A stretch of 33,616 nucleotides of DNA, from positions 1-33,616 of the IMG/VR virus record IMGVR_UViG_2778261222_000001; one strand, 5' to 3'. The stretch is from a virus. Taxonomy: Duplodnaviria; Heunggongvirae; Uroviricota; Caudoviricetes. This document shows positions 1,529 through 33,616 of this stretch, piece after piece. Numbering within the stretch: the first letter of the stretch is position 1; every line of letters starts with the position of its first letter. A model generated the notes under the pieces. The model was not told the DNA's origin, ran no database searches, and saw only the letters and a list, made by a program, of their open reading frames with translations. The position numbers were made by a program, and so were the translations under genes.

Positions 1529-2887
1529 CTACGCAATACGTATGAACAAACCAATCATGACACTGGCTGACCCGGCAGACCCGAGTTCATCGCCTGACAG
1601 TGCACGATATGACCCCGGCATACCACCACCAGAACCCCGCACATATACGGAAACGCTGCCGTTATATCCAACCCTGCTACCGGTCGTGCCGTAGCACATA
1701 AATTCAACCGCACTCAGGCGTGACCCCGGATAACTGTAACCGCGTTTTATCCGGCGGTCGGTGTCTGCGTCTCCCTTACCGTTATAAGCCGCCAGTACAA
1801 GACTGCCTGCACCGTACCAGCCGTCCGTGGTACCGGGAGCAATACCGGACAGAAGAGAGATAATGTCCTGTGAGGTAATCTTCAGATTTTCCCAGCCAGT
1901 CAGATAACCATTACCTGTTGTCCAGTAGCGGTTGTAATAAATATCGCCATTAATACCGTAGAAAATAATGGCCTTTGCTGTATATCGCGGCTCCGGTGGA
2001 TTATTGCGTGCCTCAACCCACCGGATGCGGACCATCCCGTTAAACAACACACCTCCGGATATGATTTTACTGTCACCCTCAACAAAATATTCACCCGGCG
2101 TCGCATTCCTTACCCAGGACAGAAAATCATCCTCTGTGTTAAAACGGATACGCTCTGCGGGCAAAAAAATATGCCCAAAACCAAATGCGCCAGGTGTCGC
2201 CAGACGCCCTTCAGTCCGGTCACGAATGTCGCTCTGTGGCGTCATTGTGGCAGCGCTTTTCAGTCCAAGATTAGCACGGGATTCCTGCTGAGCCTCTTCA
2301 CCTTCATCAGCCAGCTCTGATAAACGATTCGCCGTTTTCAGTGTCGCAGATAACGCAGTATCAATATCTGCTCTGGCCTGCTCTGCACCGGATGCGGCCT
2401 TTTTCGCGGCGTCGGCGTTCTGCTGAACACCTTCCGCCAGTTTTTTTACCTCTTCTTTTGCACGGGCGGCAGCGTCTGCATGTTGCCCTGCCTGTCGTTC
2501 GCTTTCTGTTGCCGCTTCCGCGCTCTGCTGCGCCTGTTGCGCCAGTTCCCCGAATTTTTTCAGCGCTTCCGGGCGCAGGTCAATATCGGTTGCACCCAGA
2601 AAATCATTCAGCGAACCGTCCGTTGAATCTTCATAAACGCGAATGACGCCGATTTCTGAAAGGCGCTGTGCGCTCTGTGTCAGGCGAACACTGTATACAC
2701 CCGGCAGAACGGGGAAGTCATACTCCCCGCTCTGTGTGGTGACGTGGCTGAAAACGCCTTTCAGAATCCCTGCACGGTTGTGCAGGGAGGTCAGTGTAAT
2801 GGTTGCGCCGCCCAGCGGTTCTCCCGTGGGCGTTTTAATCACACCTTTAAGCTGCGGCATCGGGACGCTCCGGCCAGTTGATGGCAT
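1529..2887 (-). CDS. Side tail fibre protein, lambda Stf-like N-terminus
   Basis: N-terminal region ...GVIRVYEDSTDGSLNDFL matches my recollection of the lambda Stf / prophage tail-fibre N-terminal domain (...TITVYEDSQPGTLNDFL); followed by an Ala/Gln-rich coiled coil and a Gly/Tyr-rich distal domain. Start may be the internal ATG near 2860. Confidence 0.75.
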   Translation of the reverse strand: MPSTGRSVPMPQLKGVIKTPTGEPLGGATITLTSLHNRAGILKGVFSHVTTQSGEYDFPVLPGVYSVRLTQSAQRLSEIGVIRVYEDSTDGSLNDFLGATDIDLRPEALKKFGELAQQAQQSAEAATESERQAGQHADAAARAKEEVKKLAEGVQQNADAAKKAASGAEQARADIDTALSATLKTANRLSELADEGEEAQQESRANLGLKSAATMTPQSDIRDRTEGRLATPGAFGFGHIFLPAERIRFNTEDDFLSWVRNATPGEYFVEGDSKIISGGVLFNGMVRIRWVEARNNPPEPRYTAKAIIFYGINGDIYYNRYWTTGNGYLTGWENLKITSQDIISLLSGIAPGTTDGWYGAGSLVLAAYNGKGDADTDRRIKRGYSYPGSRLSAVEFMCYGTTGSRVGYNGSVSVYVRGSGGGMPGSYRALSGDELGSAGSASVMIGLFIRIA

Positions 2888-3377
2888 TAAAGGAGGCTTC
2901 GTCAGTAACGGTGCTTAAATCCAGCGCCTTTACCGCTTTGATATATGCCATCCACTGCGTAAGACGGACTTTGTCATCGTCGCTGATGGTGCCCAGCTCC
3001 AGCTCGGTTTTCCAGTCGGAGGTGATGTCCTTTGCTTCATTCAGCAGGCGCTGGCGTTGTTTTTCCGCCAGTTGCGAATAATCAACAGGAACAGGCAGCA
3101 CTTCGCCGTCCTGGTAATACCAGCAGGCTTCAATTCCAAAACCTTCCGGCAGCTCGTCCACTTCCACAATGGTGAAGCCAGCCGGATAAAGACGGGACAC
3201 GTCTTCCGCCATCGAATAAATCACGCCGGTTTCCGGGTGAATACACAATTTGTATTTCTTCGTGAATTTATCCAGTGATTCATAAAAATCCTGTCCGTCT
3301 TCACTGCGGAAATACTGAATATCCTTACCATAAGGCATATTTTCCGGGTAATAACGCGAAACGTTTCTTAGTTCCAT
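2847..3377 (-). CDS. Tail fibre assembly chaperone (Tfa-like)
   Basis: ATG at 3375-3377 preceded by AAGGAG 7 nt upstream; C-terminus ...NAINWPERP resembles the lambda Tfa C-terminus; follows the Mu-type fibre. Confidence 0.75.
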   Translation of the reverse strand: MELRNVSRYYPENMPYGKDIQYFRSEDGQDFYESLDKFTKKYKLCIHPETGVIYSMAEDVSRLYPAGFTIVEVDELPEGFGIEACWYYQDGEVLPVPVDYSQLAEKQRQRLLNEAKDITSDWKTELELGTISDDDKVRLTQWMAYIKAVKALDLSTVTDEASFNAINWPERPDAAA

Positions 3378-3391
3378 TGTTTTCTCCTTAA

Positions 3392-4387
3392 TTAACCTGA
3401 TACGGTGCGCCATGAACCATTGATATAAATCTGCGCGGATTTGTAATACACACCACCGATGTTATCCGCCGAACTTCTTCCCGTATCCTGGACATAAATT
3501 CCCGACAACTGACAGCCTGAAGGCGCGCGGAACGTCCAGGTGATTTCGTTACCACCCGGGTTGTAAAACACCTCATTGGTGTACTGAAAATTACGCACAG
3601 CGCCGGAATCGGTGGTGCTGATGGTGATATCGCTGGAGCCATCAAACGGTACATTGTTAATCCTGCGAGGGGTTTGTAGTTTTGTGGCAGTTGCTGCGTT
3701 GAAGCTGTCTTTTGATGTAAACACCTGCGCCCATTCAGACCAGGCTGCATCAGTGGTATCACGCCTTGAGCGAATATAAACCGGAGCATGCGCACCGCTC
3801 GTGCCACTCCAGCCAATCAGCAGTTCGCCTTCGCCAGATGCTGCCGCACCTTTCAGATGCAGAACATTGCCATAAGCAGTGGGATAGCCGTTGCTGTACG
3901 CTTCATACATCTGAAGTCCTGCATAGCCTTGTGCTGTACCGCTTAATGCTGTCACCGGCCCTTTTGATAAAAGGATGTCTGGTGACAGGCCGATTGCTTT
4001 AATAAATTCACTGGCGCTGTTTTTCCCGAGAATACTGCGCACAAAAGCACTGAGCGGCGTTAATGCCATTGTGTCTTCGCCGGTAAAATACGGGAACGTA
4101 TTATTCTGACCGGTTAATCCGGCAATAGCACCGGCTGAACCACTGTTCGTAATAAACAGTTTTTTCAGCGCTGTCATAATCTGGTTGGTGGTATTTTTAT
4201 CCGGTTTGATATTTGCCTGCCGGAGAATTTCCAGCAGTTCAGACTGAATAATATTAAACCAGTCCGGCCCCGGATAAGTGGGCGGAATACCGTTCCCGCC
4301 TTCGGTAAAATAAAGCGTTGTTTTGCTTAATTCAGCCGCGACAGGTGGCATCACCGGCACACCCGTCGGATTATCAACATGAAACAT
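3392..4387 (-). CDS. Tail fibre protein, Mu S-type N-terminal domain
   Basis: N-terminus MFHVDNPTGVPVMPPV... resembles the Mu/P2-type fibre baseplate-attachment domain as I recall it; GGAGAA Shine-Dalgarno upstream; 331 aa. Confidence 0.7.
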   Translation of the reverse strand: MFHVDNPTGVPVMPPVAAELSKTTLYFTEGGNGIPPTYPGPDWFNIIQSELLEILRQANIKPDKNTTNQIMTALKKLFITNSGSAGAIAGLTGQNNTFPYFTGEDTMALTPLSAFVRSILGKNSASEFIKAIGLSPDILLSKGPVTALSGTAQGYAGLQMYEAYSNGYPTAYGNVLHLKGAAASGEGELLIGWSGTSGAHAPVYIRSRRDTTDAAWSEWAQVFTSKDSFNAATATKLQTPRRINNVPFDGSSDITISTTDSGAVRNFQYTNEVFYNPGGNEITWTFRAPSGCQLSGIYVQDTGRSSADNIGGVYYKSAQIYINGSWRTVSG

Positions 4388-23989: not shown

Positions 23990-24387
23990 GAATCCCCCTT
24001 ATGAAAACGGCGCTGATGTTTATAAAGTGCCGCGCAAAAAATACCGCCCAGCCAGAACGCCAGCTGATAAGGCTCCTTCAGATAAAGAATGCCGAATGTC
24101 AGCATGAAAAAACCAACGGCCCAGACCACCCATGACCACACGACAATTCGAAGGGAAGCGGCCCGGAAACGCCTTTTGGGTTGCAGGCGATAAGGTACGT
24201 TGCCCAGCTGGAAACTGTGAATCAGACAGAGTGTCGCGCCGTATGCCAGCACCATGACCGCAAACGCCCGCCATCCGGCAAAACAGCTCGCCAGAAAAAG
24301 TACTGCCGACAGCCCCAGAAACGACCACTGGCACAACATAAAGCGGGAGTAAATAACGCGAACAAAAAGACTATTCATTCTGTGCAT
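23977..24387 (-). CDS. Integral membrane protein (about 4 TM helices)
   Basis: Start at ATG 24385-24387 with AAGGA Shine-Dalgarno; four hydrophobic segments (the track ORF extends upstream with no obvious start). Confidence 0.5.
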   Translation of the reverse strand: MHRMNSLFVRVIYSRFMLCQWSFLGLSAVLFLASCFAGWRAFAVMVLAYGATLCLIHSFQLGNVPYRLQPKRRFRAASLRIVVWSWVVWAVGFFMLTFGILYLKEPYQLAFWLGGIFCAALYKHQRRFHKGDSWIR

Positions 24388-24598
24388 TGAGTTTTTCCTT
24401 GTACTTCTGGCACTGCCAGAAAATGTCCCGTGTATCCACGGAGTTCCAGCCACGCATGTAATAGCTGGCGTGTGTGCCGTCATGGCCGGTGTAGTCCACC
24501 GGCTTCGGGGGCGGGCCTCCGGCCATGCGGTGCAAAATCTCCTGACGCAGGCGGTCACGCCGCCCGGCTTTCAGTGAGGCATCCCAGCCTTTACCCAT
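24371..24598 (-). CDS. Hypothetical small protein downstream of the endolysin
   Basis: 75 aa; starts immediately after the lys stop. Confidence 0.4.
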   Translation of the reverse strand: MGKGWDASLKAGRRDRLRQEILHRMAGGPPPKPVDYTGHDGTHASYYMRGWNSVDTRDIFWQCQKYKEKLNAQNE

Positions 24599-24599
24599 A

Positions 24600-25196
24600 T
24601 CACCCCCGCGTGGCGGACATGATGCCCTGGGGGGTATCGATGATTTCCAGACAGGCGTCGGTCAGTTTTTCCATGCGGTTAAACCAGCCGTTCAGGTATT
24701 TACCCTGGGCGGGTTTTGACTTGATGATGTCGGCATAAAAGCGGGAACGACGGACAATGCAACGGGCCAGCAACCAGTCCGGGGTGGACAGGCTCACGGC
24801 CTTACGGGTACGCGGACCGATGATGCCGTCAGCATCCACATCAGCGGCTTCCTGCAAAATCCTGATGGCTTTTTTAACGCCATGCTGAACCGCCGCATCG
24901 AACACAAACATCGCCACGCCATCAGGCCACTGGTCACATCCGGCAGGCAGCCAGTAATCGCGCCAGTAAATCTGCGCAACCTGTTCGCGGGTCAAATCCC
25001 TGATGCGGGTATCCGGTTTGCCGTCACCGTTGACATCGGTTTTGCCGTCAATCACACCGTCGCGGCGGTCAGAAATGCCGTATTTAGTTTCGCCGCCACG
25101 GTCTGTGGGGTCATTGACATAGCCGCCTTCGATATCAGGACGCAGGATAAAATTCAGCGCATGTTCAAAGGTCGGGGAGAATTTTTGATTTTCCAT
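24600..25196 (-). CDS. Endolysin, GH108-type N-acetylmuramidase with peptidoglycan-binding domain
   Basis: N-terminal motif EGGYVNDPTDRGGETKYGI typical of glycoside hydrolase family 108; AGGTG Shine-Dalgarno upstream. Confidence 0.8.
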   Translation of the reverse strand: MENQKFSPTFEHALNFILRPDIEGGYVNDPTDRGGETKYGISDRRDGVIDGKTDVNGDGKPDTRIRDLTREQVAQIYWRDYWLPAGCDQWPDGVAMFVFDAAVQHGVKKAIRILQEAADVDADGIIGPRTRKAVSLSTPDWLLARCIVRRSRFYADIIKSKPAQGKYLNGWFNRMEKLTDACLEIIDTPQGIMSATRG

Positions 25197-25250
25197 AAAA
25201 GCACCTGTGAAGCAGATTTAAACGTGGTCTGCTTCATGGTGCCGGAGGCA

Positions 25251-25276
25251 TAAAAAAAGCCGGATTTACCGGCTTC
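25251..25276 (-). terminator. Rho-independent terminator (minus strand), copy 2 of the repeated element
   Basis: Same aaaaaaagccggatttaccggcttca sequence as at 17531-17556; hairpin plus seven T on the minus strand, between the moron and lys. Confidence 0.6.
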
Positions 25277-25297
25277 ATTGAATATCAGGTTATTGGC

Positions 25298-25795
25298 TCA
25301 GTTAACTTTACGGGCAGAACATGTAGTCTTCATTACTGAACGTTCAATTTTTATCTTCCAGCCATTTACTGTTTTTTCGACAGGATCATCTTCAGCTTGC
25401 TTTAAATTTTCAACTTGCATGAAATTCAGTGGGGCTGGGGTATCATCGTCCCATGATGTCGGGCGAACATAATCAGGGACAACAAAAGGCTCAAAAACAG
25501 TTTCACATAAAGCAGACGTCATTTGAGCGAACTCGTCGCTATCGGGGCGAACCGGTCCTGTAACATACTGCATTTTTATGTTGATTTCGTTATCTCGCAC
25601 AGACGCCTTTAAATCCTGATATACACCTAAGTTAAATCCTTTAAACTCAGCAATGGCAGCGTCACCTTTACCATACCAGTCGGTATAGTCAACGGATGTT
25701 TTTTTCTGAAAAACATCTTTGACTTTTTGCTGGAATGTATCCTCCGCTTGTACAGTAGTAACAGTTAGTAAAAGAATAAGGGGAAGATATTTCAT
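25298..25795 (-). CDS. Secreted protein of unknown function (moron)
   Basis: N-terminal signal peptide MKYLPLILLLTVTTVQA followed by ED; visibly AT-rich codon usage compared with flanking genes; ATGA overlap with the mor stop. Confidence 0.6.
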   Translation of the reverse strand: MKYLPLILLLTVTTVQAEDTFQQKVKDVFQKKTSVDYTDWYGKGDAAIAEFKGFNLGVYQDLKASVRDNEINIKMQYVTGPVRPDSDEFAQMTSALCETVFEPFVVPDYVRPTSWDDDTPAPLNFMQVENLKQAEDDPVEKTVNGWKIKIERSVMKTTCSARKVN

Positions 25796-26193
25796 TGTTC
25801 GTCCTTAAATAGTTGCATTTGATATTTTCCACGCTCCAGTCGGCGCATTCTTTTGATGGCCTGATATACCGTTTTGTATGTCACTTTGTAACGCTGCACC
25901 AGCTCCGCTACGTTTTTCCCATCAAAATCACGCCAGATGCGCATGTCTCTGATAAGATTTTCCAGTATTTTCCCTTTCGGAACATATACCTGAATCCCAC
26001 CGATATGATTGCAAATCGCCACTACCAGCTCAAGGGAGTGGGCAGGGTTAACTCCAAGCCTTATCAGCTCCTGTCGCAACAGAGCATTCAGCTCAGCCAG
26101 TAAAGATGGAAATCCCGATTTTTCCTGAACATCATCAAAATATTCAAGGATACTGTCGTCCTGATAATCACCAAATAAATCCTGCTCTTTCAT
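25792..26193 (-). CDS. mor: Mor/C-family transcriptional activator (Mor by position)
   Basis: 133 aa; C-terminal region YKTVYQAIKRMRR fits the Mor/C helix-turn-helix as I recall it; follows gemA as mor does in Mu. Confidence 0.7.
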   Translation of the reverse strand: MKEQDLFGDYQDDSILEYFDDVQEKSGFPSLLAELNALLRQELIRLGVNPAHSLELVVAICNHIGGIQVYVPKGKILENLIRDMRIWRDFDGKNVAELVQRYKVTYKTVYQAIKRMRRLERGKYQMQLFKDEQ

Positions 26194-26741
26194 AGAACTA
26201 TTCTCCCGCTGTTTCTGGCGCGGGCATACGCACTGGTCAGTGCATCATATCCGCGCAGTTCCCGCCCGGTTTCGCTCACAGGTAAAGGCATGCCATGTCG
26301 GGCAAAGGCTTCCCGGATGCAGCGCATATGCCACTGTTTGAGCGTTTCGAGCACAACCTGCAACGATTCCCCATGACACCAGGCCAGCGTGGAAACACCC
26401 TGACCACCATTACGTCTGGCCGTCAGGCGTTCAACGTATTTGTCCAGCGCGGCGTCGCTGATATCGGATACGAAACCATCAAGAAACATCTGCTGCCAGA
26501 TTTTATAAATCTTCTCGCGCGGTGTGACATGCCCCTTAAAGCGACGGCGGGGATGTTTATTCTGCTTTTTAAAACCGCGCTCTTTCATGGCATCGAGCAC
26601 TTGTTCCAGTTGTGCAACGGACAGCTCGCGGCAACTGGTTTTGCCCGTGCACTGCACCAGAAAGGCGCGGTAAGTGTCATCGTCGAGGTGCAACTCCCGG
26701 CGGGCAACATGAATTAATTTAATCAGGGATGTGCGACTCAT
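26190..26741 (-). CDS. gemA: GemA-like regulatory protein
   Basis: Position immediately upstream of mor; ATG at 26739-26741 (track ORF begins at a GTG at 26786). Confidence 0.65.
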   Translation of the reverse strand: MSRTSLIKLIHVARRELHLDDDTYRAFLVQCTGKTSCRELSVAQLEQVLDAMKERGFKKQNKHPRRRFKGHVTPREKIYKIWQQMFLDGFVSDISDAALDKYVERLTARRNGGQGVSTLAWCHGESLQVVLETLKQWHMRCIREAFARHGMPLPVSETGRELRGYDALTSAYARARNSGRIVL

Positions 26742-27108
26742 TTTGCCCCATCTCCTTAATGCAGTGTTTTTCGACCCATGCCACACGAGCAGAATTCAGG
26801 TGGCATCTGTCATGTAGGCATTCATCATGGTAGTGCACGTTATCTACATTAAATGGCAGGGATTCATCCAGCCCACTCGCGACAAAATCCGCATGTAATT
26901 GTTCTAGCGCAGCCTCGCTGTCTGCTCCGATTGATTCAAAATAGTCATAAACATTGGCGCATAATCCGACTCCCCGAATAAACCCTTCCCCTTCCGTTTC
27001 TTGCGCTCCGTTTTTTAACCACTGGTTATAGGCGACATAAAAATCATAAAGATGTTTTCTGGTGCTGGCGGATGCGGATTTAATTTCATTTTTCTCTGCG
27101 TTATTCAT
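26719..27108 (-). CDS. Hypothetical early protein with His/Cys-rich motif
   Basis: 129 aa; HYHDECLHDRCH motif suggests metal binding. Confidence 0.45.
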   Translation of the reverse strand: MNNAEKNEIKSASASTRKHLYDFYVAYNQWLKNGAQETEGEGFIRGVGLCANVYDYFESIGADSEAALEQLHADFVASGLDESLPFNVDNVHYHDECLHDRCHLNSARVAWVEKHCIKEMGQNESHIPD

Positions 27109-27283
27109 TTCTTAATACCTCTTCGCAATAAAAGATTTCATTGGGATAATGTTTTTGTATGCGCTCCATCACCTGCATACATGCCTGCTCGGTGGGCCAG
27201 ATTTTTTCCGTTACAGGGATGGCATCACAGGCATCATTCCCGCAGGTGCCAACCAGCAGGACAAAGCCAATTGACTTAATCAT
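27101..27283 (-). CDS. Small Cys-rich protein with N-terminal hydrophobic signal-like segment
   Basis: ATG at 27281-27283 overlaps the upstream stop (ATGATTAA); MIKSIGFVLLVGTCGNDAC..., five Cys in about 60 aa. Confidence 0.4.
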   Translation of the reverse strand: MIKSIGFVLLVGTCGNDACDAIPVTEKIWPTEQACMQVMERIQKHYPNEIFYCEEVLRNE

Positions 27284-27818
27284 GTTCACTGACTTCCTGT
27301 GTTGCGGCCGGAGCTGGTGAATAATCAAGAATGAGATAGCGCATGACGTGGTCGGTGATATTCCAGCCACTGGAACCACAAATAAAGCGCCCCAGCCGGA
27401 TATCGATATACGCCATCACAAAACGGGGCATTCCCTGTTTGCACATCTCGTCATCCACTTCAGCAACGATGTAAACCGACTCGCAGGTCAGTACGCCTGT
27501 CGCAAATTCTTTTGCCAGTGCCGGAATGGCATTGCCTTCCAGCCAGGGCAAAGAGCGGCGGAACGCGCACCATTGAGCATCATCAACATCGGGGTGTTCC
27601 GTTGTTGCGTTTCGTCTTACAGGAGGCGTCGGACGAGGGCGCGGAACGTCATAAAAGCCATTACATTCAGTCAGCAATCCGGCATCAACCGCATCGCGCA
27701 GGAAATACACCATTGAGGAAGGTGGCATCTTCATTTTTTCAGCCAGAACGCCACAGGTCAGACGGCCGTAAGCGCGTAATAATGTACTGACACCGTTCAG
27801 AATTTTTGCATCAATCAC
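27276..27818 (-). CDS. Hypothetical early protein, possible N-terminal winged helix
   Basis: 180 aa. Confidence 0.45.
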   Translation of the reverse strand: MIDAKILNGVSTLLRAYGRLTCGVLAEKMKMPPSSMVYFLRDAVDAGLLTECNGFYDVPRPRPTPPVRRNATTEHPDVDDAQWCAFRRSLPWLEGNAIPALAKEFATGVLTCESVYIVAEVDDEMCKQGMPRFVMAYIDIRLGRFICGSSGWNITDHVMRYLILDYSPAPAATQEVSEHD

Positions 27819-27821
27819 CGG

Positions 27822-28427
27822 TTATTCCTCCGTCAGCGCCACAAATTCAGAATGTTTAATGCGCTGGCATTCGGCGGGAACCGGTCCCTTAACCTCACCG
27901 CCAAGAAGGCGTACTTTAAACAAAATGCCGAATCCATCACGGCCGTGGTGCATTTCCCACACTGATTTGATGTCAAACAGGTCAACTTCGGCATCTACAT
28001 TAAGTTCATTACACAGCCAGCCCGGAAAATCCGGGTGTTTTTTGAGCTGATTTTCACAGTCCCGGATGAGCTTCCCGTACTCACGGCCTGCCGGTATTGT
28101 CATATCCGGCATTGCGCCCCATAACTGAATATCACCAATGAAAAGTGTCTTTGATTTAGCCTCCCATCCTTCCGGTGGTAAACGGTTAAACCAGACACGC
28201 GTAACCCTCTCAGGCCCTTTGTCACCAGACAAAGACACAGCGGTTGCATTCACTGATTGCTGTAATAACGCAATAACCTCACCACGCTTAACAGAAACGT
28301 CTTTCAGCCAGCGAATCGTATAAGCGTTAGCGGCTGTGTCACTCAGTTTAAAATAAGCACATGCTGTCATTTTCATTCTCTCCGGTTCTGATTCAGGCGC
28401 GAGTAGTCCCCTGACGTATCGCGCCAT
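27822..28427 (-). CDS. Hypothetical early protein
   Basis: 201 aa; true start may be an internal Met. Confidence 0.45.
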   Translation of the reverse strand: MARYVRGLLAPESEPERMKMTACAYFKLSDTAANAYTIRWLKDVSVKRGEVIALLQQSVNATAVSLSGDKGPERVTRVWFNRLPPEGWEAKSKTLFIGDIQLWGAMPDMTIPAGREYGKLIRDCENQLKKHPDFPGWLCNELNVDAEVDLFDIKSVWEMHHGRDGFGILFKVRLLGGEVKGPVPAECQRIKHSEFVALTEE

Positions 28428-28467
28428 AATTAAACGAATGTGAATTAATTAAATATTCGTGGTGGTA

Positions 28468-28992
28468 TTAAATACCGGCTTCCTGTTCAAACGGAATAAT
28501 AGAAAAATCTTCAATGCCCGATTTAACTGTAATTCCGGCAACACCTGCGACCGCTTTCGGTTCCAGTAAAATCGCTTCCTTGTTGATTTCCTGTTTCGTG
28601 CGAATAAAGCGTTGCAGGCCAAGACGCTCCAGCGTTTCCATCACCGCATCCACACCGCGAATGCTTACCGATGGTGGGCGCAGACGCCATGACACATCGC
28701 CGGTTACCAGGTTTGCCGTCTTCACCTTGCCGCCGTTCGTCAGTTCGTCACGGTTCGCTTCACACCATCCCTGAACGCCTTTTGAAAGGGTTTCGATACT
28801 GGTTTTAAGCGGCGCAATCTGCGAGGCGTATTTCTCCGTAATCTCGGCGATAGCGTCATTCATTTCCGTTTCAAGTCGTGCCGCTTCGCGTTGCAGGTCA
28901 CCAATCCGGCGGATATCACATACCACGGCATCGCGGGATTGCGGAACATAAGCCGCTGCGGCACTCTTGATTCGTTTTGCTGGTTTAGCCAT
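28468..28992 (-). CDS. gam: Gam host-nuclease inhibitor (Ku-like DNA end-binding protein)
   Basis: 174 aa; MAKPAKRIKSAAAAYVPQ...IPFEQEAGI matches my recollection of Mu Gam over its full length; AGGAG Shine-Dalgarno upstream. Confidence 0.9.
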   Translation of the reverse strand: MAKPAKRIKSAAAAYVPQSRDAVVCDIRRIGDLQREAARLETEMNDAIAEITEKYASQIAPLKTSIETLSKGVQGWCEANRDELTNGGKVKTANLVTGDVSWRLRPPSVSIRGVDAVMETLERLGLQRFIRTKQEINKEAILLEPKAVAGVAGITVKSGIEDFSIIPFEQEAGI

Positions 28993-29012
28993 ATAAATAA
29001 AGCTCCTGTTAA

Positions 29013-29312
29013 TTAATATTCGCTGTATACAATGCTGGATACAGCACGATTGCTTAATTCCATCTTTTGGGCAATGGCATGAATAGCCAGCCCTTCTTTA
29101 TAAAGTTCACGACACAAATATTTGTCGTGCTCACTGATTCGATATGCACACAACGATATTCCGTGCCTTCTGGCATGTGCCTGTAGGGCGGCTGGGGCAA
29201 CGTTCAGTTTTTTCGCCATTTCCTCGACGGTCATTTTCCCGACACTGGCTTCGATAAATTCCCGGTCTTCGCGTGACCAGCGTTTACGCTTACACATCAT
29301 TCCGGTCACCAC
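29013..29312 (-). CDS. Small helix-turn-helix DNA-binding protein
   Basis: 99 aa with two HTH-like segments (MTVEEMAKKLNVAPAALQAH and GLAIHAIAQKMELSNRAV). Confidence 0.45.
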   Translation of the reverse strand: MVTGMMCKRKRWSREDREFIEASVGKMTVEEMAKKLNVAPAALQAHARRHGISLCAYRISEHDKYLCRELYKEGLAIHAIAQKMELSNRAVSSIVYSEY

Positions 29313-29732
29313 TCAGTACAACATGGGGTCACGCAGTGATGCCGGAATATGCCGCAGCGATAACTGAACCGCTTTCAGGGCAAGGGAAGAATACGTCCCC
29401 TGCGTCCAGCCTTTCGCCATTTGCCGGTAATCGCGCCAGATGTTCTGCCACTGCTCCCGTGCGTCCGGGTCTGATGCGCTGATGTATTCGCGGTCCATGA
29501 CGTATTCCCATAAATCCACATTGAAGGCATTGCCAAACGTAATGGCGCGGAATACCGCCTCCCCGCAATAACGCGCACAAATGCTGTAATGGTCGAATGC
29601 AATCAGGTAAGTCTTTTCGCCATATCCCTCAACTTCGCGCGCGCAAATAAACTCGCGTAAGTCTCCGCCATTGTTATTACGCATTTTGATTCGAATTAAT
29701 GCCTGGATTTCGTTTCTGATTTTGGCGTTCAT
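29313..29732 (-). CDS. Hypothetical early protein
   Basis: 139 aa. Confidence 0.45.
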   Translation of the reverse strand: MNAKIRNEIQALIRIKMRNNNGGDLREFICAREVEGYGEKTYLIAFDHYSICARYCGEAVFRAITFGNAFNVDLWEYVMDREYISASDPDAREQWQNIWRDYRQMAKGWTQGTYSSLALKAVQLSLRHIPASLRDPMLY

Positions 29733-29746
29733 TGTCAGCGTTCCTT

Positions 29747-30010
29747 TCAGTGACGTGTTCCTTCAACTGTCGTTTCTGTGACACTGCCACCCGAAATGAC
29801 GCCATCATTTTTCAGTATTTCAATGGCCTCATGGGCTGATTCGCGAACGATATCCCGGCTTTTTTCCAGAACCAGTAACGCTATCGCACCAGCAAGCGTG
29901 TACTCATCACCATCCAGTTCTGCGCTGTGGTCCACGTTAACATTGGTGCGTAAATGCTGCCCTTTAACTTCAGATGTCACATTTTTGATTTCGATAATGA
30001 CTTTTGCCAT
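29747..30010 (-). CDS. Hypothetical early protein
   Basis: ATG at 30008-30010 with GAGGA Shine-Dalgarno (track ORF extends to 30064). Confidence 0.45.
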   Translation of the reverse strand: MAKVIIEIKNVTSEVKGQHLRTNVNVDHSAELDGDEYTLAGAIALLVLEKSRDIVRESAHEAIEILKNDGVISGGSVTETTVEGTRH

Positions 30011-30042
30011 TTTGTTATTCCTCACAAATAAATAATTCGTTA

Positions 30043-30270
30043 TTAACGCCAGATAATCTGGCAACCATTAAGGCGGGCCGTCCATACGGAACGGGCAACC
30101 CCTGATTTATGCTCCATAATCCTGACAGCGTTTCTGACCAGCTCCGGTGGCGGGCAGGTAATTTCAAGCACCGGGCGGGCCACGCCCAGCCAGGATTCGT
30201 TGACGTGGCTGCCGCGCTCCTGTAACCAGCTCTTTACTTCCGTTGCCATTTTGATATTCCGTGACATCAT
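30043..30270 (-). CDS. Hypothetical small protein in the position of Mu kil
   Basis: 75 aa; begins 12 nt after the B stop. Confidence 0.4.
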
Positions 30271-30282
30271 GATTTATGCCCC

Positions 30283-31215
30283 TTACCACCAGTTCAGTAA
30301 CTTCGGGTTGCTGTAAACCTCTTTAAAAGCCGCTTTAATGTAGCCTTTGGATAACGGAACACCTTTCCCGCTGGCTGCCAGCCATGCCTGATTCAACGTA
30401 TGAGTTAATACACGTAATGCACCTGGTTTTTCCGCTATGCTCTGCATGAGTGATAATTCATCTTCACCCTCAATGCCCCAGGCTTTCGCAATTGCCACCA
30501 CATCAGCCTTTTTGGCTTTACGCAGTTGTTTTGTTCTGGCGAAACGGCTGAACAAACGCGCAAGGTCATCCGTTCCCCGATGTGTGGCTTTGGCTAATTG
30601 GCTTGGGTTACCAATCAATACCATCCCGACGCCTGTTGCATCCTGAATGGCGCGCAACTGCTCCAGCCCGTCCATGCTCAGGTGGTCAGCTTCATCCACA
30701 ATCACCAGACCGCGTGTGCCGTTCAGTTTTTTGCGAATGGCACGGGTCAGCGCGCCTTTACTCCTTTGCGGATTATCAATTCCCAGCGCGTCTGCCAGTT
30801 CCAGCAGGCACTCGGTCACTGTTGAGTGCGCAGGGGAAAGGGTCACCATCCAGGTATTAGATACACGGTTACTGTATTCACGGGCCGCAACGGTTTTACC
30901 AACACCCGGTACACCAACCAGAACGCTGATACAGCCCATAACACGCACGGTCTGAAACAGCTCGCGCAAATCACGGAGGGTTTGTGTTTCCACAAGTTGC
31001 GGTGCACCTGGTAATTCCTGGCTTTTCTGCCAGTCCTGATGCCACACCAGTAATTTGTCATGCATCCCTTCGGTATCGCCTTTGTAACGACCTTTGCGAA
31101 GTTCCGATAGCGTGGCCTCTGACACGCCCGCCTCTTTAGCAATAACACCCTGAGTTTTTACGCCGTCGGAAATCAGCGCATTAATCGTATTGAAAACATC
31201 ATTAATATCGGTCAT
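30283..31215 (-). CDS. B: Transposition protein B (AAA+ ATPase, target DNA activator)
   Basis: 310 aa; Walker A motif GVPGVGKT; N-terminal HTH; follows the transposase; GAGGAAG Shine-Dalgarno. Confidence 0.9.
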   Translation of the reverse strand: MTDINDVFNTINALISDGVKTQGVIAKEAGVSEATLSELRKGRYKGDTEGMHDKLLVWHQDWQKSQELPGAPQLVETQTLRDLRELFQTVRVMGCISVLVGVPGVGKTVAAREYSNRVSNTWMVTLSPAHSTVTECLLELADALGIDNPQRSKGALTRAIRKKLNGTRGLVIVDEADHLSMDGLEQLRAIQDATGVGMVLIGNPSQLAKATHRGTDDLARLFSRFARTKQLRKAKKADVVAIAKAWGIEGEDELSLMQSIAEKPGALRVLTHTLNQAWLAASGKGVPLSKGYIKAAFKEVYSNPKLLNWW

Positions 31216-31258
31216 ATTACTTCCTCGGTTATTTAAAATTAACTTTGCTTCCCTGTTT

Positions 31259-31287
31259 AACAGTCCGTTCCCGCGGACTGTTTTTTT
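31259..31287 (+). terminator. Stem-loop in the A-B intergenic region with a T-run on the plus strand
   Basis: aacagtccg / cggactgtt 9-bp stem with 6-nt loop, followed by tttttatt on the plus strand; lies 3 nt from the A stop codon. Confidence 0.3.
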
Positions 31288-31289
31288 AT

Positions 31290-33377
31290 TCAGGCCAGCG
31301 GATCATCCTGTTCCTGTATGGCTGCAAGTTTCTGCAAACCCAGCCTGAAATCGCGTTCATAATCTTCGTCGTAATCCTCCTCATAATCCTGTTGCTGGAT
31401 GGTTACCGTATTACCAACCGGGCGATAAACATTATCCAGCCAGGGTTCAGTCTGTTTGTGCTCCAGAATCTGAATGCCTTCATCCTCAGCATCACGAATT
31501 TTTTCCTCAGCGCGTTTGCGCATTCCTTTAATACGCTGCTGTTGTTTGTGATATTCAGCACTGACAGCAAAGGCTGCGCGTTTATTGCCGTTCCATATCG
31601 CCTCACAGATAAAGCTGCCGTCCTTGCGACGTACCGTAATTCGCTCGGCGTCATGAATGTCATAACTGATAAGCACTTTGCGACCGTGTTCGTCACGCAA
31701 CTCCGGCGCGTAGTAAATATTGTTCAGCCACTGAATTTCGCAGCGTCTTACCGGTCGTTCCACCATCGGGCGGAACATGTCGCGCAGCTCAAGATCACTC
31801 AGCCACTCAATTTCGGTGTCTTCTTCTGCTAGGCGTTTTTTTCTGAACTCTGCCGGGCTGTAATGCCGCCCGTTCGGTTTCATCGGCAGCTCAGAATGTG
31901 GGCGGTTGTTGTACCATTCCACGCCTTCACGAATAGCCTCAATAAGCTCCGCCCACGATGGTAGCTCGCGCATTGCAGCTTTCTGTCGGTCGTTCAGAGG
32001 CTTGTCCTGTTGCATGGCGTTAAACGCTGAACGCAGATCACGGTTAAGTACACGCAACGATTCCCGGTCAGCACCCTTGCCAAAATAGGTGCGATACCTC
32101 CTGGCTATACGCATTGGCAGCGTCCGGTTCAGGCGTTCAATAATGCCGCGCCCCTGTGGATTACCGGCAATACCTGTTGGGTGTTTAATCCCCAGGCGGG
32201 GCAGAATACCCACGACCTCTTTGTCCAGCATGTCAGCCGTTTCACCAGAACCGTTATCCGAGTAATACAGAAACGGTTTTCCGTGGTTGCGAATGCCGTG
32301 CTGTATCGCACCGGCAACGGCGAACACGTTCTCGGCAAGGTCAAGACTCCAGCCAACAACAAACCGGGTTCCACCGTCGATCACAAATGTGACTTCCGGT
32401 GAGAATGGACGCCCGTGGATCGGATGTGCACATTTCAGCTTCATACCGTGACCGTCACCAATCCAGACATAATTCACCGGCATAGCTGCCCAGTCGCGAC
32501 GGGTGAATCCTTCAAGCTGACGGTATTCACTGCCGGTAACACGGCCTTTTTGTTTCACCACTTCCGGCAATTTTTTCATGGCATAACGAACCACATCGTA
32601 AGAGGGCATCACCTCTATCATGTAGGGTTCGTCTGCATGGCGACGCTGCCATTCCGCGACAAAATCTTCGTAGGCTTCTGACATAGATCTGCCATTCGCC
32701 TGGCGATACTGCGCCAGAAATTCAGGCAGCCAGCTAATTTCTTCCGGTTTTATTTCGTCGCGTTTTCCCGGTGCCAGTAACAGCAGCCGTTCTGCGGCGT
32801 TCTGTGATTGGTTGTATTTCAGCACCCACTGATAAAGCGGGTCACGACTGATGGTGCGATTAGCTCCACGTTTTGCATTGGCGGTAGCTGTGGCCTGTTG
32901 CAGGCGTTCCGGTAGTTCACCTTTACGGGCTTTTTCGACAAGATAGTTAATGGCTTTCAGCCGCCCGAGATTACCGTCGCTTTCCAGCTTCAGTACTTCC
33001 ACCACCAGCGCAGCCCTTGCTTCAGATACCCGACGCTGATTTTCGGTCAGCGTATTCAGGCGTTCTTCCATCAGTTGTGGCGAACCGCGATATGCTTCGA
33101 TTGCCTGGACAGCATCAGGATTGCGTGTTTTTCTGACAACAGCTTTCACTTCAGAAACATCGTTCTCTTTAGCCACCAGTTGTTCCACATAGCGTTCACG
33201 CAGTGCCTTTTGTGTTATTTCCGGCAGACAATCAATGTGGTATTCAATGGCTTTTGTACCTGCGCGTTTACGTCGGAGATGTTCTGATGAAGCCAGTTTT
33301 TTTATGGCGTACCTCACACCCTGCGCGCTTCCCGGCATACCTGGTAGCCCTACGAGTTCGTTTACTGACACAAACAT
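31290..33377 (-). CDS. A: Mu-type DDE transposase A
   Basis: 695 aa; position after ner and before B; size comparable to MuA. Confidence 0.9.
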   Translation of the reverse strand: MFVSVNELVGLPGMPGSAQGVRYAIKKLASSEHLRRKRAGTKAIEYHIDCLPEITQKALRERYVEQLVAKENDVSEVKAVVRKTRNPDAVQAIEAYRGSPQLMEERLNTLTENQRRVSEARAALVVEVLKLESDGNLGRLKAINYLVEKARKGELPERLQQATATANAKRGANRTISRDPLYQWVLKYNQSQNAAERLLLLAPGKRDEIKPEEISWLPEFLAQYRQANGRSMSEAYEDFVAEWQRRHADEPYMIEVMPSYDVVRYAMKKLPEVVKQKGRVTGSEYRQLEGFTRRDWAAMPVNYVWIGDGHGMKLKCAHPIHGRPFSPEVTFVIDGGTRFVVGWSLDLAENVFAVAGAIQHGIRNHGKPFLYYSDNGSGETADMLDKEVVGILPRLGIKHPTGIAGNPQGRGIIERLNRTLPMRIARRYRTYFGKGADRESLRVLNRDLRSAFNAMQQDKPLNDRQKAAMRELPSWAELIEAIREGVEWYNNRPHSELPMKPNGRHYSPAEFRKKRLAEEDTEIEWLSDLELRDMFRPMVERPVRRCEIQWLNNIYYAPELRDEHGRKVLISYDIHDAERITVRRKDGSFICEAIWNGNKRAAFAVSAEYHKQQQRIKGMRKRAEEKIRDAEDEGIQILEHKQTEPWLDNVYRPVGNTVTIQQQDYEEDYDEDYERDFRLGLQKLAAIQEQDDPLA

Positions 33378-33379
33378 CT

Positions 33380-33616
33380 TTATGCTACCTTACGAACGTA
33401 TCGGCTGGGCCAGATCTCCTCCGGAGCCACACCAATAGCATCAGCAATGATGCGTTCATACTTAGGGCATTTACGATACAAGGCGTTCTTTAACGAATCC
33501 CTGTTTAAACCTGCTTCAACAGATAGAGAACGTAAAGTAAAGCCTTTCACATGTACCGCCGCGACAACATGCGCGGGATGCCAATCCTGTTTAACAACTT
33601 CATTTATAGACATCAT
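33380..33616 (-). CDS. ner: Ner-like DNA-binding early regulator
   Basis: 78 aa; ...WPSRY... C-terminal motif matches my recollection of Mu Ner; ATG at 33614-33616, the last bases of the window; directly upstream of A. Confidence 0.85.
   Translation of the reverse strand: MMSINEVVKQDWHPAHVVAAVHVKGFTLRSLSVEAGLNRDSLKNALYRKCPKYERIIADAIGVAPEEIWPSRYVRKVA

Follow-up and report, generated by a model that had tools for sequence, protein, structure and literature searches.

The gam-gemA interval of a Mu-like prophage: a near-core gp11 gene and three accessory cassettes with a proposed host-directed role

What do the small genes between gam and gemA of a Mu-like prophage consist of, and are they likely to act on the host? 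In the classic model phage Mu, the semi-essential early region is one of the few parts still to be explained, and the question is raised anew by the virus record IMGVR_UViG_2778261222_000001 (Caudoviricetes), of which a stretch of 33,616 nucleotides (nt), here called the window, was analysed. The window holds nearly the whole of a Mu-like prophage, which is encoded on the minus strand. A preliminary description of it had placed four genes at 26719-28427, between gam and gemA, and had proposed for them an anti-defence or host-takeover role; the four genes, named p201, p180, p60 and p129 after their lengths in amino acids (aa), do lie at these positions, on the minus strand. Our analysis favours, with somewhat better than even confidence, the view that the block is a plasticity zone of the Mu-like early operon, in which a near-core gene, gp11, stands together with three cassettes whose products would be made early and are proposed to act on the host. 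As a plasticity region the block is of the usual sort for a transposable phage, and it is no new kind of element. Its four families are already catalogued, all of them in PHROGs as hypothetical and one in Pfam, and what is new here is that the core gene is told apart from the cassette genes.

The features of the interval, in the direction of transcription, are as follows; ORF denotes an open reading frame.

28468-28992, minus strand: gam, host-nuclease inhibitor, upstream flank (Pfam Phage_Mu_Gam, 4e-43)
28371-28467, minus strand: gam-p201 spacer, common to Mu, containing the ATG at 28427, which lacks a Shine-Dalgarno sequence, and a stem-loop
27822-28427, minus strand: p201, ORF of 201 aa (probable gene 27822-28376), an SfMu ORF11-type accessory gene
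27276-27818, minus strand: p180, 180 aa with a GTG start, assigned as the Mu gp11 ortholog (Mu_11; old names E10-E12)
27101-27283, minus strand: p60, 60 aa, inside a 92-aa ORF (phrog_16556)
26719-27108, minus strand: p129, 129 aa, one copy of a phage domain of about 100 aa, predicted to have five helices
26190-26741, minus strand: gemA, downstream flank (Pfam GemA, 1.4e-32)

Gene order, packing and selection in the gam-gemA interval

The interval differs between related loci, where the genes from gam to gemA are:

Mu: Mu_11, Mu_12, Mu_13, Mu_14, Mu_54, semi-early promoter
RM11911 and STEC719: gp11, p60, p129
E. coli 06-00048: gp11, p60, E15-like gene
JCKP02: p201, gp11, p129-domain and E14 fusion, 77-aa gene, E15-like gene
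Window: p201, gp11, p60, p129

The slot after gp11 is accordingly occupied by one of several alternatives, namely Mu_12/13/14/54, p60 with an Sf14-like gene, p60 with a Mu14-like gene, or the fusion of the p129 domain to an E14 zinc ribbon. In the 24 Mu-like viral contigs with p60, this gene is followed by p129 in 3, by an Sf14-like gene in 13 and by a Mu14-like gene in 6, and p201 is found in 4; the pair of p60 and p129 occurs in 10 genomes. Since p201, p60 and p129 come and go separately across loci, they represent three independent cassettes, with gp11 as the near-core gene. In this pattern p201, p60 and p129 behave as exchangeable genes, as is typical of host-interaction or counter-defence genes, and the earlier reading of the block is in part supported.

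The DNA around the block (3 kb) is 84-86% identical to Mu, D108, SfMu and Yersinia phage Tongde, in matches that span only 62-80% of this region. The flanking proteins are close to those of Mu, with 93% identity for Gam and 81% for GemA, the latter counted from residue 16 of its ORF. All junctions of the block are either a 2-nt gap or overlaps of 8-23 nt. The p201 stop is followed after 2 nt by the GTG start of p180, with a ribosome-binding site (GGAGGA) within the end of p201; the p180 stop overlaps the p60 start in ATGATTAA, in line with the translational coupling of p60 to the 180-aa gene noted earlier; and the p60 stop overlaps the p129 start in ATGAATAA. The end of p129 overlaps by 23 nt the likely start of gemA, which is probably at 26741 within the 3' end of p129 (ribosome-binding site AAGGAG), and public assemblies call the gemA product as 183 aa. 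These start/stop overlaps are kept in relatives. In the early operon the four genes are coupled at the level of translation. Neither promoter- nor terminator-like sites exceeded shuffle expectation in 25700-29100, and a scan of 24000-33616 against Rfam gave no family match. No internal promoter or terminator thus stands above chance, and on the model of Mu the block would be transcribed from the early promoter in the course of lytic growth.

The ratio of non-synonymous to synonymous substitution rates (dN/dS), estimated by Nei-Gojobori comparisons with related prophages, was 0.02-0.14 for gam, 0.11-0.21 for gp11 (p180), 0.14-0.18 for p60, 0.26 for p129 and 0.41-0.53 for p201, the highest in the region. 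Because the ratio is below 1 for all four genes of the block, they are real genes under purifying selection and not chance ORFs. The exact p129 protein was found in 395 blocks of public assemblies; the exact 184-aa p201 was found on 18 contigs, and those long enough all share the four-gene order of the window. Profile searches and dN/dS together gave neither a housekeeping homolog nor a pseudogene among the four.

The four proteins and their families

The sensitive profile and structure-based searches proposed in the preliminary description left p201, p60 and p129 without a Pfam or NCBIfam family, while p180 was placed as gp11 through the domain Gp11_C. The three gave nothing in Pfam or NCBIfam even at E<=10, and for all four proteins no PADLOC family was matched at E<=1. 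Matches in PHROGs were to families of "unknown function" only. Against the PDB, p129, p201, p180 and the family profiles gave nothing below an E value of about 0.4, and p129 and p201 showed no likeness in sequence or fold to solved anti-defence proteins (Ocr, ArdA, Acb, Tad, Gad, anti-CRISPRs and others). For p129 and p201 confident folds were predicted, without a solved homolog. No relevant literature was found on Mu gp11, PF25754, DUF5420 or the PHROG families.

The 180-aa protein had been regarded as unrecognisable, which does not hold. It is 87.6% identical over 177 aa to the catalogued Mu_11 (AF083977, where Mu_11 merges the old E10-E12), with which it shares start and operon, and PF25754 (Phage Mu Gp11 C-terminal domain, Gp11_C) matches its residues 91-168 over model positions 1-78 of 78, with 132.4 bits and E 7.7e-39 against a cut-off of 27. 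At the sequence level these matches identify p180 as the ortholog of Mu gp11. It falls in phrog_1949 and has no PDB match by sequence. Of 5426 complete E. coli genomes 318 carry the gene, and among sequenced phages it is confined to Muvirus-type genomes (16 records); gp11 is a near-core early gene. The winged helix suggested earlier comes down to an HTH_20 match at residues 13-50 with E 0.098 and 13 bits, under the cut-off of 27. From this weak N-terminal helix-turn-helix (HTH) signal, gp11 may be a DNA-binding early protein.

For p201, the ORF is present at 27822-28427 as described earlier, whereas the true product is probably shorter, of 182-184 aa with its start 17-19 codons in. This is suggested because no Shine-Dalgarno sequence stands before the ATG at 28427, GGAGAG is found upstream of M18/M20, and the homologs are all annotated or called as 182-184 aa. 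Relative to Mu and E. coli RM11911, p201 is a clean insertion of about 565 base pairs (about 28386 to 27822), and at this site Mu retains the spacer, a 15-codon remnant ORF and GAGGAATAA immediately before gp11. The protein is 86% identical to that of Tongde and 65.7% identical over 201 aa (tblastn) to SfMu ORF11 (SfMu gp11); both fall in phrog_2260, and the homology is full-length, as expected of a member of the SfMu ORF11 family. SfMu ORF11 has been listed as without homolog in Mu or D108 (PMC4406740). Some copies carry the RefSeq label "DUF5420 family protein", which was unconfirmed here: Pfam at E<=10 was silent even for SfMu gp11, and the DUF5420 model was apparently missing from the Pfam copy searched. 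The family is narrow, with 11 close clusters, all from enterobacterial Mu-like prophages, and full-length p201 occurs in just 6 complete E. coli genomes; p201 is a presence/absence accessory cassette. Its AlphaFold2 model is alpha/beta, with a predicted local distance difference test score (pLDDT) of 89.5 and a predicted template modelling score (pTM) of 0.78, and BFVD holds three unnamed phage proteins with the p201 fold at 16-18% identity and template modelling (TM) scores of 0.69-0.75.

The spacer between gam and p201 is identical to the Mu gam-Mu_11 spacer at 87 of 94 nt. On the minus strand at 28385-28435 it holds a conserved inverted repeat, GGCGCGA(16 nt)TCGCGCC, and the RNA fold of this stem-loop is modestly better than that of shuffled sequences (z -1.7). 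The repeat may serve in the processing or stability of RNA, or it may be no more than a recombination junction.

The preliminary description had called p60 a Cys-rich protein with a signal-like segment. The Cys-rich character stands, with C14, C19, C35 and C53 and a stretch CG.DACDA(L/I)PV conserved in homologs (the invariance of the cysteines refers to an alignment of 5 sequences), while the segment comprises 8-10 residues and a signal peptide is unsupported. A manual rule check was made for a basic n-region, a sufficiently long hydrophobic core and a cleavage site, either for signal peptidase I or in the form of a lipobox, [LVI][ASTVI][GAS]C. In the window p60 begins with MIKSIGFVLLVGTC, where the candidate lipobox VGTC has an unfit T at -1 and G at -2, and most homologs begin M(L)LIGFVLL.S.C, that is, with 8-10 hydrophobic residues and no K or R. 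A lipoprotein or secreted peptide finds no support on these grounds: the hydrophobic core is short, a basic n-region is mostly lacking and VGTC misfits the lipobox. Two further identities were tried. By tblastn p60 had no genuine match at the Mu, SfMu and Tongde loci, and Mu_13 (E14) is a four-CxxC zinc ribbon, unlike p60; nor was there a match to the Lar models PF14354 and TIGR03655. Most likely, p60 is a mini-protein stabilised by metal or disulfides through its four cysteines. It occurs in at least 123 viral contigs, of which 24 are Mu-like; the remaining ones come from Yersinia, Hafnia and Aeromonas temperate phages of other types, in which p60 ends the early-left operon and has recT/erf, DNA methylases and xis-int as neighbours.

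For p129 the family proved large. Word-indexed homolog searches gave few matches, and it was an exhaustive HMMER search of 1.84 billion representatives that revealed 516 clusters at E<=1e-3, a lower bound, the clusters being defined at 50% identity. The unit of about 100 aa may make up the whole protein (100-115 aa), be repeated in tandem (2-3 copies) or form one module of a longer mosaic prophage protein, and the family spans phrog_6418, phrog_2510, phrog_27059 and phrog_2176, all labelled unknown function. Its consensus is FYxAYxxWLxxGA..F.R..GLCxNL...EM..QF..AGL...PFN....Y..E.....CHLN..R..WV. Over 110 aligned members, C50, P85 and F86 are invariant, and W30, G48, L49, N105 and R108 are conserved at about 99%. 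The AlphaFold2 model, built with 110 sequences, shows five helices (pLDDT 86.6, pTM 0.79). As judged from sequence and model, p129 belongs to a large phage domain family, newly recognised here, for which neither a Pfam or NCBIfam model nor a solved relative was found.

The motif HYHDECLHDRCH, residues 92-103, by which the gene had been characterised earlier, is present in the window protein but not conserved across the family. In the same 110 members H92 is kept in 16%, H94 in 12%, C97 in 25% and H99 in 10%, compared with 65% for C102 and 80% for H103 (otherwise Y, W or F); Y93 and E96 are also conserved. As a zinc-binding His/Cys motif of the family it is rejected on these column statistics. 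An identity of p129 with Mu E15 (Mu_14) was likewise rejected, with no genuine tblastn match at the Mu, SfMu and Tongde loci and no hit in Mu for the p129 hidden Markov model (HMM).

By tblastn the p129 domain was found in 219 phage records, with 4-6 diverged copies per genome in phAPEC8-type virulent phages. In phAPEC8 itself (NC_020079.1, 9776-20081) five diverged paralogs, gp233, gp222, gp219, gp214 and gp211, are spread over a 10-kb array in which the genes are small and lack annotation. Escherichia phage Bas79 (PQ850629.1) has an unannotated p129-family ORF (extracted locus 3393-3794, plus strand; HMM E 6e-36) where the record annotates an opposite-strand ORF, Bas79_0090, which is probably a mis-call.

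Of 189 sequences that carry the domain, 43 have at least 50 residues beyond it, and the fusion partners include a dATP/dGTP pyrophosphohydrolase, DUF551, DUF7415 and Lar. The Lar fusion, homolog P0024, has a genuine C-terminal Lar domain (PF14354, 1e-6; TIGR03655, 1.5e-10), and zinc-ribbon fusions amount to 3 of the 43 (one Lar and two others); p129 itself has neither a Lar domain (PF14354, TIGR03655) nor a zinc ribbon. In E. coli JCKP02 a 231-aa protein of a Mu-like prophage (extracted locus 2792-3487, minus strand) combines the p129 domain with an N-terminal extension and with the four-CxxC zinc ribbon of Mu E14 (Mu_13). The fusion is common (cluster P0155, 138 member sequences) and links p129 and E14, which are otherwise alternative cassettes.

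In 30 viral contigs the neighbours of p129-family genes were P, NinB, RusA, Dam methylase, PAPS reductase, Ead_Ea22 and Hok, contexts that correspond to lambdoid replication, nin and exo-xis regions. Membership of the multi-module homologs in the Ea22 family was not confirmed, Ead_Ea22 being seen in neighbour genes only; a study of lambda Ea22 describes its C-terminal domain as alpha/beta, unlike p129 (PMC10834534). The C-terminus of another p129-domain protein, P0010, AHADVTNILIEELKEHQTA, is almost identical to that of the lambda exo-xis ORF lambdap35, which indicates module shuffling between these regions.

Possible roles of the block

How would a plasticity zone of this kind work? In lytic growth the early promoter would drive all four genes together with gam and gemA, with translation coupled via the overlapping stop and start codons. 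The proteins would then appear at an early stage of infection or induction and be missing from the lysogen, and the accessory ones, as small non-structural proteins, would bind host components or modify them. Their role would be in host takeover or counter-defence, dispensable in the laboratory like the remaining Mu semi-essential region. For p129 the working part would be the compact five-helix domain, with a binding or catalytic site formed from C50, P85-F86, N105, R108 and W30, together with the mostly conserved E96 and H103.

From its context, an anti-defence or host-takeover role of the block is plausible. Counter-defence is made plausible by the accessory behaviour of the genes, the paralog expansion in virulent phages, the fusions to Lar and zinc ribbons and the adjacency to gam; the Gam and GemA families have both been found to interact with the Gabija defence system (PMC12407980). 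Several points weigh against a host-directed role. No defence, anti-defence or host-takeover match was obtained by sequence, profile or fold (Pfam, NCBIfam, PADLOC, PDB). The link of p129 to restriction alleviation consists of one Lar fusion and two other zinc-ribbon fusions, and the neighbours of its family are generic temperate-phage early genes. The raised dN/dS of p201 could reflect relaxed constraint in place of an arms race, the use of the early promoter is taken over from Mu, and the near-core gp11 could serve phage development and not host interaction.

More specifically, one or more of the accessory genes, p129 being the likeliest, would encode a dedicated counter-defence protein (restriction alleviation or immune inhibitor) that works alone or with a small zinc-ribbon or Cys-rich partner such as p60. 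We consider this possible at low confidence. The domain is fused to Lar in P0024 and joined to the Mu E14 zinc ribbon in the 231-aa Mu-like prophage protein, and in the window p129 is translationally coupled to the Cys-rich p60; each phAPEC8-type virulent phage holds several diverged paralogs, the accessory genes show a presence/absence pattern and the block adjoins gam, a RecBCD antagonist. Yet the Lar fusion is a single case and zinc ribbons are rare among the extended homologs, and p60 and p129 are not obligate partners, another gene following p60 in 21 of the 24 Mu-like loci. It is similarly tentative to regard the p129 domain as a new class of counter-defence or host-takeover effector, possibly with Cys-rich or zinc-ribbon partners (Lar, Mu E14, p60), with p201 and p60 as further inhibitors and the gam-gemA interval as an anti-defence island.

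A role in phage development is as live an alternative as counter-defence, especially for gp11, and we give it an equally modest probability. The genes would then serve transposition or replication (as in the old Mu "arm"-type function), topology or expression together with GemA and Mor, or the choice between lysis and lysogeny. Such a role is consistent with the near-core position of gp11 in Muvirus-type prophages and its weak N-terminal HTH signal, with the location of the block between gam and the gemA-mor regulators, where it overlaps the gemA start, and with the relatives of p60 and p129 in lambdoid exo-xis or nin-type regions; lambda exo-xis genes are reported to bias the developmental decision (PMC7093339, PMC10834534). 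Functions of this sort are, however, usually conserved, whereas Mu, D108 and numerous normally developing relatives do without p201, p60 and p129. There is no homology to lambda Ea22, Ea8.5, Orf60a, Orf61 or Orf63, and the p129 domain is multi-copy in virulent phages, which take no lysogeny decision. We regard it as very improbable that certain ORFs, p201 and p60 above all, are passengers without a selected function, in decay or no longer functional. The dN/dS of p201, the narrowness of its family and its lack in most relatives would fit such decay, but every ORF is intact with dN/dS below 1 and the start/stop overlaps are retained in relatives. Moreover, p201 folds confidently, in a fold common to three phage proteins of low identity, and the p60 family keeps its four cysteines across several genera.

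Each gene now has a family and a distribution, and two have confident fold models, which makes them concrete experimental candidates. The p129 domain is the most useful lead, being common, multi-copy in phAPEC8-type phages and without a Pfam or NCBIfam model, and having clear invariant residues. Should any of the proteins inhibit a defence system, the gam-adjacent interval would be a predictable site to search for counter-defence in transposable phages; if none does, it would be an ordinary mosaic accessory region.

Neighbouring genes and comparison with known systems

Elsewhere in the window, MuA transposase (31290-33377, minus strand) and MuB (30283-31215, minus strand) are encoded, and Pfam identified, besides Gam and GemA, Mor, a GH108 endolysin and tail genes. 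Upstream of gam, at 29013-29312 and 29313-30064 (minus strand), are other genes of the semi-essential region, which are also conserved hypotheticals: a 99-aa HTH protein (phrog_323 "D5-like regulator"; HTH_Tnp_1, 1e-5), a 139-aa protein (phrog_3690) and a protein of about 87-105 aa (phrog_10252). In 24600-26193 (minus strand) one Mor-family gene is followed, directly or after a 165-aa ORF, by an endolysin with GH108 and PG_binding_3, and no separate gene for the late activator C was seen there. The 165-aa ORF (25298-25795, minus strand), located between mor and the GH108 endolysin, has a start that overlaps the mor stop and a classic signal-like N-terminus, MKYLPLILLLTVTTVQA, with no Pfam match. 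It is present in STEC719-type and window-type prophages and absent from RM11911-type ones, and looks like a further insertion/deletion cassette, possibly for a secreted or periplasmic protein.

The semi-essential region of Mu has the same operon, position, flanks (gam; gemA-mor) and tight packing as the block, and p180 is the direct ortholog of Mu_11. The window differs from Mu in the extra p201 between gam and gp11, and in that p60 and p129 replace Mu_12, Mu_13, Mu_14 and Mu_54 (E13-E15) together with the annotated semi-early promoter region; p60 and p129 are unrelated in sequence to those Mu genes and run straight into gemA. Downstream of gemA, the window also lacks the arrangement of E18-E20, C and gp22. 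In the slot after gam, SfMu (ORF11) and the Yersinia phages Tongde, vB_YpM_3 and vB_YpM_23 have proteins 66-86% identical to p201 over the full length.

With the lambdoid nin and exo-xis regions the likeness is physical, genes of the p129 and p60 families occurring in such early regions. Homology of p60, p129 or p201 to the lambda exo-xis proteins was rejected, the profiles of the three giving noise (<=1.6 bits; hmmsearch --max) against Ea22, Ea8.5, Orf60a, Orf61 and Orf63. The Lar/Ral restriction-alleviation proteins resemble the block proteins as small early accessory proteins of temperate phages, and one p129 relative carries Lar; they differ in that p129 is without Lar or zinc ribbon and p60 is not Lar-like, so that the link is one of domain fusion only. 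The known anti-CRISPR plasticity region of Pseudomonas Mu-like phages lies in the head-gene region and not between gam and gemA. In the left arm of these phages, accessory ORFs ("morons") have been described as "regions of genomic plasticity", and they resemble the present block in being short, packed, dispensable early ORFs that vary between otherwise collinear phages (PMC4378225).

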